Source: Chlamydia trachomatis (GTDB lineage Bacteria > Chlamydiota > Chlamydiia > Chlamydiales > 2-12-FULL-49-11). From it: a DNA stretch of 24,000 nt. The stretch spans positions 6,448 to 30,447 of the forward strand of contig CAMBTZ010000001.1 of NCBI GenBank assembly GCA_945870925.1. The letters run 5' to 3'. The notes under the pieces were generated by a model that searched no databases, was not told the origin of the DNA, and saw only the letters and a program-made list of their open reading frames with translations. A program made the translations under genes and the position numbers. This document shows, piece after piece, positions 3 to 554 of the stretch. Position 1 is the stretch's first letter. Every line of letters starts with the position of its first letter.

Positions 3-554
3 GGCGCTACCCCTAAAAAACAGCAAATTGCTGAAATTATCGGACTCCTCTTCCCTTCACTACTAATCGGCTTTGTTTTGATATTGCTAAATAAAGTCTA
101 CGTCTTTGGAAGCACCGCTTTGCCAGCCCCCCAAGCCTCACTTCTTGCCGTGATCGGATCAGGTGTTATTCAGCATCAACTACCTACAACACTTGTCCTT
201 CTCGGAGTTGTCCTCGGTTTCATCCTCATCCTCCTAAGAACAAGAATCCTCCCCTTCGCAATCGGCCTCTACCTTCCCCTCGAAATCAGTACCCCCCTCA
301 TGCTCGGTGGCCTAGTCAGATACCTAGTAAAAAGGTTCCACAAACCCGAATCCGAACAAGCCGGCGTCCTTATCGGCTCAGGCCTAGTCGCAGGAGACGC
401 TTGCATCGGAGTCATCATCGCCCTCCTCACCGTCCTCGGCATCATCTCCCCAGACGCACCCCCCCTCCTCGGCCCCTCCTCCAGCATCGCCCTCTTCCTC
501 CTCCTCACCCTCCTCTTCGGCTGGCTCTCCCTCCGCCCAAAAGAAAAAACCTAA
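3..554 (+). CDS. OPT-family oligopeptide transporter, C-terminal part; the 5' end lies upstream of the window
   Basis: The frame is open from base 3 (GATPKKQQIAEIIGLLFPSLLIGF...), so the listed 78..554 ORF is only the tail. The sequence is hydrophobic and multi-TM, with ...GSTALPAPQA..., ...LPFAIGLYLPLE... and ...GGLVRY... patterns I associate with OPT-superfamily C-termini. Stop TAA at 552-554. Confidence 0.65.
   Translation, partial: GATPKKQQIAEIIGLLFPSLLIGFVLILLNKVYVFGSTALPAPQASLLAVIGSGVIQHQLPTTLVLLGVVLGFILILLRTRILPFAIGLYLPLEISTPLMLGGLVRYLVKRFHKPESEQAGVLIGSGLVAGDACIGVIIALLTVLGIISPDAPPLLGPSSSIALFLLLTLLFGWLSLRPKEKT

Follow-up and report, generated by a model that had tools for sequence, protein, structure and literature searches.

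C-ending, G-avoiding codon tails at transcription-unit ends in a genus of uncultured Chlamydiae, possible loading zones for Rho

We analyzed a stretch of 24,000 nucleotides (hereafter, the window; contig CAMBTZ010000001.1, positions 6,448 to 30,447 of the forward strand) from an uncultured lake-water member of the Chlamydiae, whose nearest named relatives are the Simkaniaceae (~54% identity for the OPT protein described below). The assembly, G000 in what follows, comprises 1.32 Mb at 37% GC; we called 1039 long open reading frames (ORFs) in it, with 80% of the assembly covered. Five genomes of its genus were compared at the OPT locus, G000, G001, G002, and G004 among them. The window opens inside a gene for an OPT oligopeptide transporter (G000:C1:5154-7001, 615 codons) that starts 1293 nt before it. 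The OPT stop codon TAA (552-554) overlaps the stop of a convergent ORF by 4 nt; the OPT transcript would have to end within sequence antisense to this ORF. None of the other four genomes compared in the genus has the convergent ORF at this place. The features that the text refers to are the following, where C3, A3, G3, and T3 denote the share or number of codons ending in that base:

1..554, + strand: 3′ part of the OPT oligopeptide transporter gene, 183 codons plus stop (Pfam OPT PF03169, E 1.5e-22; ORF 3..554)
210..551, + strand: C-ending, G-avoiding codon tail of 114 codons, C3 0.69, C/G 2.6 (change-point fit; C3/T3/A3 gradient)
411..551, + strand: core of this tail, C3 40/47, 74 C and 17 G in 141 nt (change-point fit)
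551..554, both strands: CTAA, overlapping stops of OPT (TAA, + strand) and of the convergent ORF (TAG, − strand), where the C-rich composition ends
551..1567, − strand: convergent AT-rich ORF without a Pfam family (ORF listing, Pfam search)
4287..4406, + strand: another tail, the last 40 codons of gene 3513..4409, C3 27/40, G3 1/40 (codon counts)
4480..4599, − strand: another tail, the last 40 codons of gene 4477..5622, C3 22/40 with a gene-body C3 of 0.10 (codon counts)
21147..22676, + strand: rho gene, 509 amino acids (Pfam Rho_RNA_bind; PDB alignment of 538 bits)

The end of the OPT gene has a highly unusual base composition. A preliminary description of the sequence had reported 69 C and 14 G at positions 421-540 and 6 C in a comparison line at 14161-14220, and our recount gave identical values (A11, C69, G14, T26 at 421-540). 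Its remark that nearly every codon here ends in C was likewise borne out, as the 64 third positions of the codons covering 363-554 (OPT frame 3..554) comprise C49, A12, T2, and G1. The patch had been placed at 230-554 and was said to stop exactly at the stop codon; the end is correct, with the composition stopping at TAA 552-554 and the convergent ORF then beginning on the other strand, whereas the start was set ~20 nt late. A two-segment likelihood fit over the whole OPT gene placed the switch at codon 502 of 615, i.e., at window position 210. Before this codon, C3 was 102/501 = 0.20, and after it 79/114 = 0.69 (binomial P of the tail count given the body rate, 3e-29). A second step at position 411 raised C3 to 0.85. 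The C/G ratio was 2.6 over the full 342-nt tail (210-551; 145 C, 56 G) and 4.35 over 411-551. Along the gene, C3 remained at ~5 per 30 codons through ~480 codons and then climbed to 28/30, while T3 fell to 0, A3 dropped from ~12 to 2-4, and G3 stayed at 0-1 per 30 codons.

The OPT tail is the most C-rich 120-nt window of the 1.32-Mb assembly (maximum, 70 C; 99.99th percentile, 57 C). Its last 120 nt contain 51 YC dinucleotides, compared to a mean of 11 and a maximum of 27 in mid-gene windows of the same length, and fold weakly despite the higher G+C of the tract, with a minimum free energy (MFE) of -11.1 kcal/mol vs a mid-gene mean of -20.1; merely 5% of the mid-gene windows have an equally weak or weaker fold. 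Two further reading frames overlap the tail, an antisense ORF at 269..508 and an ORF in the +1 frame at 401..565, which we rejected as by-products of stop-poor, C-rich sequence. We also observed that gene-body C3 on contig C1, in the window and its flanks, differed by strand, with values of 0.12-0.26 on the + strand and 0.06-0.14 on the − strand. Such values agree with a replication-strand skew of C over G on the + strand and add to the extremity of the OPT tail.

The local rise in GC to 0.55-0.61, directly next to DNA of ~30% GC, could in principle stem from import from a high-GC donor or from a chimeric assembly, both of which had been proposed for this patch. Import does not fit the third codon positions: DNA from a high-GC donor would have brought a higher G3 too, but only C rises, with C3 at 49/64 while G3 is 1/64, and given this near-zero G3, the tail is not a high-GC import. 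Moreover, the composition changes as a gradient and not as a step between two compositions, and the OPT protein is collinear with its orthologues, from which the gene differs mainly at silent sites (codon alignment). As to a chimera, a 3280-nt Logan contig crosses the junction and matches window positions 1-2747 with 0 differences; this contig-level check comes from the probable source run and hence excludes an assembler artefact, though it is not independent sampling. Contigs from a second lake sample hold both flanks but are too shallow, with 472-592 uncovered. The same tail was present in the OPT orthologues of two metagenome-assembled genomes from other lakes (C3 of 29/40 in the last codons in G002 and 25/40 in G001). 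We regard import or chimerism as an explanation of almost negligible probability.

The OPT tail was first described as a single local oddity, but it turned out to belong to a class of gene tails that extends over the whole genome and is restricted to the genus; among the dozens of tails known there, that of OPT is the strongest and marks the extreme of the class. About 5-7% of the genes in G000 carry a C tail on the sense strand, and almost none carry one at the gene start: C3 reached at least 16/40 in the last 40 codons of 68/897 genes and in the first 40 codons of 0/831, and among all 1039 long ORFs in 74 at the end and in none at the start. A search for any 40-codon window with C3 of at least 24 yielded 36 genes, 26 of which have this window no more than 30 codons from the stop and none of which have it near the start. 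In a metagene of 51 strong tails, C rose from about -350 nt, peaked at 0.36-0.37 between -90 and -30, and remained at 0.31-0.37 up to the stop, immediately after which it was back at the baseline of 0.19. Tails occurred on both genome strands and always on the coding strand. The window itself holds two further examples, on the + strand gene 3513..4409 and on the − strand gene 4477..5622, so that it is the coding strand, not the replication strand, that tails follow. The convergent ORF beyond the OPT stop carries no such tail (C3 of 3/40 at its end).

This class is confined to one genus. Tails (C3 of at least 16/40) were carried by 7.1% of the genes in G000, 19.3% in G002, and 7.5% in G004, all of the same genus, vs 0.3% in G007, a member of a sister genus with the same GC content and the same mean C3. 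The metagene was flat in G015, in G012 (a third genus), and in G038; in G015, also of a sister genus, tails were weakly in excess where transcription units end (15 tails vs 1 head). Within the genus, tail strength correlated between orthologues (coefficient rho of 0.62-0.63), and individual tails turned over, with 11 shared between G000 and G002, 4 found only in G000, and 28 found only in G002.

The tails are strongly associated with the ends of transcription units. We counted a gene as such an end if the next gene was convergent, or co-directional at a distance of at least 50 nt, and as operon-internal if followed by a close co-directional gene. In G000, tails with C3 of at least 18 were found at 42 transcription-unit ends and at 3 operon-internal positions, vs 381 and 311 for genes with C3 below 10 (odds ratio 11, p 7e-8). 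For the class as a whole, odds ratios were 5-11, and a dose-response was observed across tail classes. The association replicated in 400-kb samples of G002 (odds ratio 6.8, p 2e-6) and G004 (20:0 vs 137:73, p 6e-4). Comparisons of orthologues that differ in their transcription-unit context yielded too few pairs (6-16). Strong tails were present at only ~10% of the transcription-unit ends in G000 and ~25% in G002, and hence the tails cannot be a general terminator.

Canonical intrinsic terminators are rare in these genomes. We found hairpin-plus-U terminators after 4-8% of transcription-unit ends, regardless of whether the genome has tails; this equal rarity led us to reject a loss of intrinsic terminators in the genus as the cause of the tails. 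Around the OPT stop, no terminator-like hairpin was found on either strand at 300-1300, and no Rfam family reached its gathering score in 1-2200. Spacers are short, with medians of 8-14 nt in G000. Genome-wide, most convergent pairs (median spacer, 7.5 nt) have neither a C tail nor a canonical terminator. OPT orthologues without a tail tend to have a strong hairpin after the stop; the one on contig G004:C2, for example, is directly followed by a near-perfect hairpin of ~95 nt and -45 kcal/mol, similar to small palindromic insertion elements of the window (4404-6566). A role of hairpins as a substitute for tails nevertheless failed genome-wide (Spearman 0.10; Mann-Whitney p 0.13), and long perfect hairpins were in fact commoner after tails (5/58 vs 6/371, p 0.009). 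Foreign low-GC neighbors were likewise rejected as a general correlate, as downstream GC was equal for tail and non-tail genes (0.370 vs 0.371).

The substitutions that make up the tails point to a preference for C over all other bases combined with an avoidance of G. Since tails were chosen by C3, their C enrichment is circular, whereas the following features are independent of that choice. G was avoided also in codons that have no synonym ending in C: Among codons for Lys, Glu, and Gln, 16% ended in G in tails vs 28% in gene bodies (p 1e-6) and vs 25% when only the bodies of the tail genes themselves were considered (p 3e-4), and this G avoidance replicated in the 400-kb samples of G002 and G004. 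At fourfold-degenerate sites in G000 tails, A, T, and G were all depleted (×0.50, ×0.47, and ×0.32, respectively); the depletion was similar in G002, while the extra loss of G was small in G004 (×0.45 vs ×0.54-0.55). Leucine codons shifted from TTA/TTG to CTC and arginine codons from AGA to CGC. Even the amino acids were affected, with V, E, G, and A, whose codons start with G, depleted, and H, T, R, and L enriched. A comparison of the OPT genes of G000 and G004 at identical residues displayed the same direction: In the last 130 alignment columns, C3 was present in G000 and not in G004 at 43 sites and the reverse at 6, vs 45 and 25 in the gene body. From these codon patterns, A, T, and G look to have been lost toward C altogether, as selection for C content would give, and not through one type of mutation; a proportional conversion of A, T, and G to C by one mutational process would not be expected.

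If selection is at work, the tails could reflect translation, with C-ending codons favored for speed or accuracy near the C terminus. The genome encodes G34 tRNAs for the fourfold codon boxes, such that NNC codons are read by Watson-Crick pairing, and the signal stops where translation does, at the stop codon. However, the ribosomal-protein genes, EF-Tu, and EF-G, with C3 of 0.07-0.15, at or below the genome median of 0.144, have no tails, and translational selection predicts neither the link to transcription-unit ends, nor the G avoidance at Lys, Glu, and Gln codons, nor the loss of G-starting codons. We therefore consider it a very improbable explanation.

In composition, the OPT tail resembles a site at which the termination factor Rho loads. 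Classical Rho-utilization (rut) sites, such as lambda tR1 and trp t′, have a tract of ~80 nt with C in excess of G. The OPT tract is C-rich and G-poor over at least 70-80 nt on the RNA strand, is dense in YC dinucleotides and weakly folded, and lies upstream of a transcription-unit end. The machinery is encoded as well. The Rho core aligns with Escherichia coli Rho structures over residues 96-508, and the motifs GFGFLRS, DIYVSP, and E-K-YFAL are kept in the alignment to E. coli Rho; they hold what we take to be the residues of the primary (YC) site, F62, F64, R66, D78, Y80, E108, and Y110. Alongside this Rho with intact primary-site motifs, G000 encodes NusG. The proposal of a rut region in the preliminary description thus agrees with the composition, the position at a transcription-unit end, the lack of an intrinsic terminator nearby, and the presence of Rho and NusG; the setting is atypical for classical rut sites, in that the tract lies entirely in a translated ORF and ends at its stop.

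As a side observation, this Rho carries a low-complexity N-terminal extension of ~90 amino acids (window 21147-21425), a feature that is family-wide and highly variable, and across relatives the open frames that encode Rho measure between 441 and 628 amino acids. A genus-specific Rho as the cause of the tails was examined and rejected: The core has only two genus-specific substitutions (I195L and A/S257T), and the N-terminal extensions vary across the whole family. Rho was present in 41/41 relatives searched. The termination machinery thus fits a role of Rho, but it does not explain why tails are restricted to one genus.

From composition, position, and gene content, we propose, as the best-supported explanation, that the OPT tail may be a codon-encoded, rut-like loading zone for Rho, a claim whose chances of being right and wrong we judge to be about equal. 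As part of this reading, the tail would be written through the choice among synonymous codons, and in part among amino acids, over ~114 codons. In the mechanism that we envisage, RNA polymerase would transcribe the OPT tail, and the ribosome would leave at the stop (552-554) or would trail the polymerase. The primary sites of Rho, which reads up to six YC dinucleotides (PMC13323073), would then capture the ~140-340 nt of YC-dense, weakly folded RNA (51 YC per 120 nt; MFE -11.1), and Rho would translocate and free the polymerase within ~100-200 nt past the stop, a release distance that has been reported for other bacteria (PMC10319736). The outcome would presumably be limited antisense transcription of the convergent gene. 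Given the short spacers and the few intrinsic terminators, a loading site that is to act close to the stop would find room only in coding sequence.

Several observations weigh against loading of Rho. The tract is wholly translated, whereas classical rut sites must be free of ribosomes. The low share of transcription-unit ends with a strong tail (~10% and ~25%, see above) and the presence of Rho in all relatives searched, with just two genus-specific substitutions in its core, count against it as well. In addition, tails do not exclude downstream hairpins (p 0.13), and long perfect hairpins are even commoner after them. Last, tails are commoner where the downstream neighbor is not conserved, which is also predicted by a rival explanation based on recombination.

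According to this main rival, tails are scars left by DNA exchange that recurs at the same places: Where genes end next to variable “slots,” in which cassettes and hairpin repeats come and go, their ends would be reused as homology arms, and a strand-asymmetric error in repair or synthesis would push silent sites toward C on whichever strand has its 3′ end at the slot. We consider this joint claim unlikely, although it has some support here. What lies downstream of OPT differed among all five genomes that we compared in this genus. On contig C18 of G001 (~196.7-202.6 kb), a direct repeat of 394 nt, 99.2% identical, comprises the final 131 OPT codons together with the stop codon, at which it ends exactly. 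The repeat flanks a 1.9-kb insert with an ORF of the PD-(D/E)XK family and an ORF for a DUF4116 repeat protein, and looks, judged by its arrangement, like a Campbell-type insertion of a cassette by a single crossover, with the OPT tail as the homology. A second DUF4116 gene follows at this locus.

Genome-wide, tails were commoner next to a non-conserved downstream neighbor in the co-directional arrangement (19/64 vs 3/38, p 0.012), a comparison that is confounded as conserved adjacency marks operons, and in the convergent arrangement the counts were 13/48 vs 5/38 (p 0.18). The excess of long perfect hairpins after tails (p 0.009) also favors exchange, and the sharp end at the stop with an upstream decay would fit a homology boundary. 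A related footprint is known from human meiotic breaks, where strand-asymmetric mutagenesis likewise decays with distance from the recombination site (PMC7615360), comparable to a tail that serves as homology in G001. That process is eukaryotic, however, and here the other flank displayed no mirrored footprint and the substitutions are selection-like. Heads downstream of tail genes had normal G3, with 6.8 vs 6.2, 7.2 vs 6.8, and 5.1 vs 6.6 of 40 codons in three genomes, and G3-rich heads were rare (22/831 at G3 of at least 14, vs 99/897 for C tails) and not tied to the starts of transcription units. Furthermore, the tails have lost A and T to the same extent and G the most, and they avoid G at twofold codons ending in A or G, a combination that no single process of mutation is known to produce; deamination, if single strands were exposed, would deplete C rather than add it. 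Tails were also present at conserved convergent junctions (the 5/38 above), and downstream GC was no different (0.370 vs 0.371). A related form, in which tails are not terminators but the footprint of a one-sided DNA process at gene ends, with gene 3′ ends reused as homology arms for cassettes (as by the repeat in G001) and a strand-specific bias of repair or synthesis that drives all silent sites to C on the coding strand, appears to us distinctly doubtful; it would amount to a new mutational or recombinational mechanism in bacteria. Loading of Rho and scars of exchange can be reconciled, in that insertions would be tolerated at transcription-unit ends, where a strong Rho site would shield the gene already present from whatever inserts.

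The C-rich tract might also be functional at the level of RNA or DNA and yet be read by a factor other than Rho, such as a C-tract-binding protein, a barrier to 3′ exonucleases that sets mRNA stability, or a DNA-level signal. The selection-like pattern, together with a restriction to one lineage without a change in Rho, leaves room for a genus-specific factor of this kind. Against it stands that no candidate factor was identified, and that a decay barrier at this place, as it precedes the stop codon, would yield mRNAs that lack one. To our knowledge, Rho is the only widespread bacterial factor that reads long, unstructured, C-rich RNA. We accordingly assign a non-Rho reader a small probability.

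In comparison with known systems, the putative Rho loading zone in OPT resembles classical rut sites in being C-rich, G-poor, YC-dense, weakly structured, at least 80 nt long, and positioned just before a transcription-unit end, with Rho and NusG encoded in the same genome. It is unlike them in lying wholly in translated sequence, where it consists of synonymous codons with some shift in amino acids, extends over 140-340 nt, and ends at the stop. Another parallel is found in Bacillus subtilis, where Rut sites within the coding sequence of terminal genes are reported to be functional (PMC12350095). These intragenic sites, mapped by H-SELEX (e.g., in dprA and kinB), also represent Rho loading in the coding sequence of a terminal gene, and transcripts are reported to be trimmed back to a downstream hairpin (PMC12350095), which parallels the excess of long hairpins after tails here. 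The B. subtilis sites are described as short U/C-rich anchors and are not reported to involve recoding over a hundred codons (PMC12350095), whereas here the composition is extreme and found in one genus. Borrelia burgdorferi, too, is AT-rich with few canonical intrinsic terminators, and its C:G ratio is raised within ~200 nt upstream of Rho-dependent 3′ ends (PMC10319736). Its authors called that increase “limited” (PMC10319736), whereas here C/G reaches 4-5 and is visible by eye at single genes. A preference of Rho that shapes codon usage genome-wide has likewise been described for species with runaway transcription, which avoid pyrimidines (a purine bias) to escape Rho (PMC13323073). There, avoidance acts along gene bodies (PMC13323073), while here we see what would be recruitment at gene ends, with gene bodies that are mildly purine-rich (0.52). 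Thus, rut sites, intragenic Rut sites, a modest C:G rise, and Rho-driven constraints on codon usage are all known, whereas our literature searches yielded no description of synonymous recoding over a hundred codons at transcription-unit ends, or of a restriction of such recoding to a genus.

If the tails are Rho sites, termination signals would override codon usage, and even nudge amino-acid composition, over a hundred codons; Rho-dependent terminators, which are notoriously hard to predict, would become readable from the sequence of an uncultured lineage; and the tails would raise the testable question of how Rho gains access to RNA under translation. If, instead, the explanation by recombination were true, the tails would mark hot spots of gene exchange and a new strand-biased repair process, visible from sequence alone. 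Either way, they provide a practical marker of transcription-unit ends and of variable sites in these genomes, and they illustrate to annotators that a local jump in composition need not mean foreign DNA or misassembly. At the opposite end of genes, we observed a weak opposite signal: G3 was at least 14/40 in codons 6-45 of 22/831 genes, compared to 3/897 mid-gene windows. This signal was seen genome-wide, in G000, G002, and G004, and genes with such G3-rich heads showed no preference among divergent, spaced, and close co-directional contexts.
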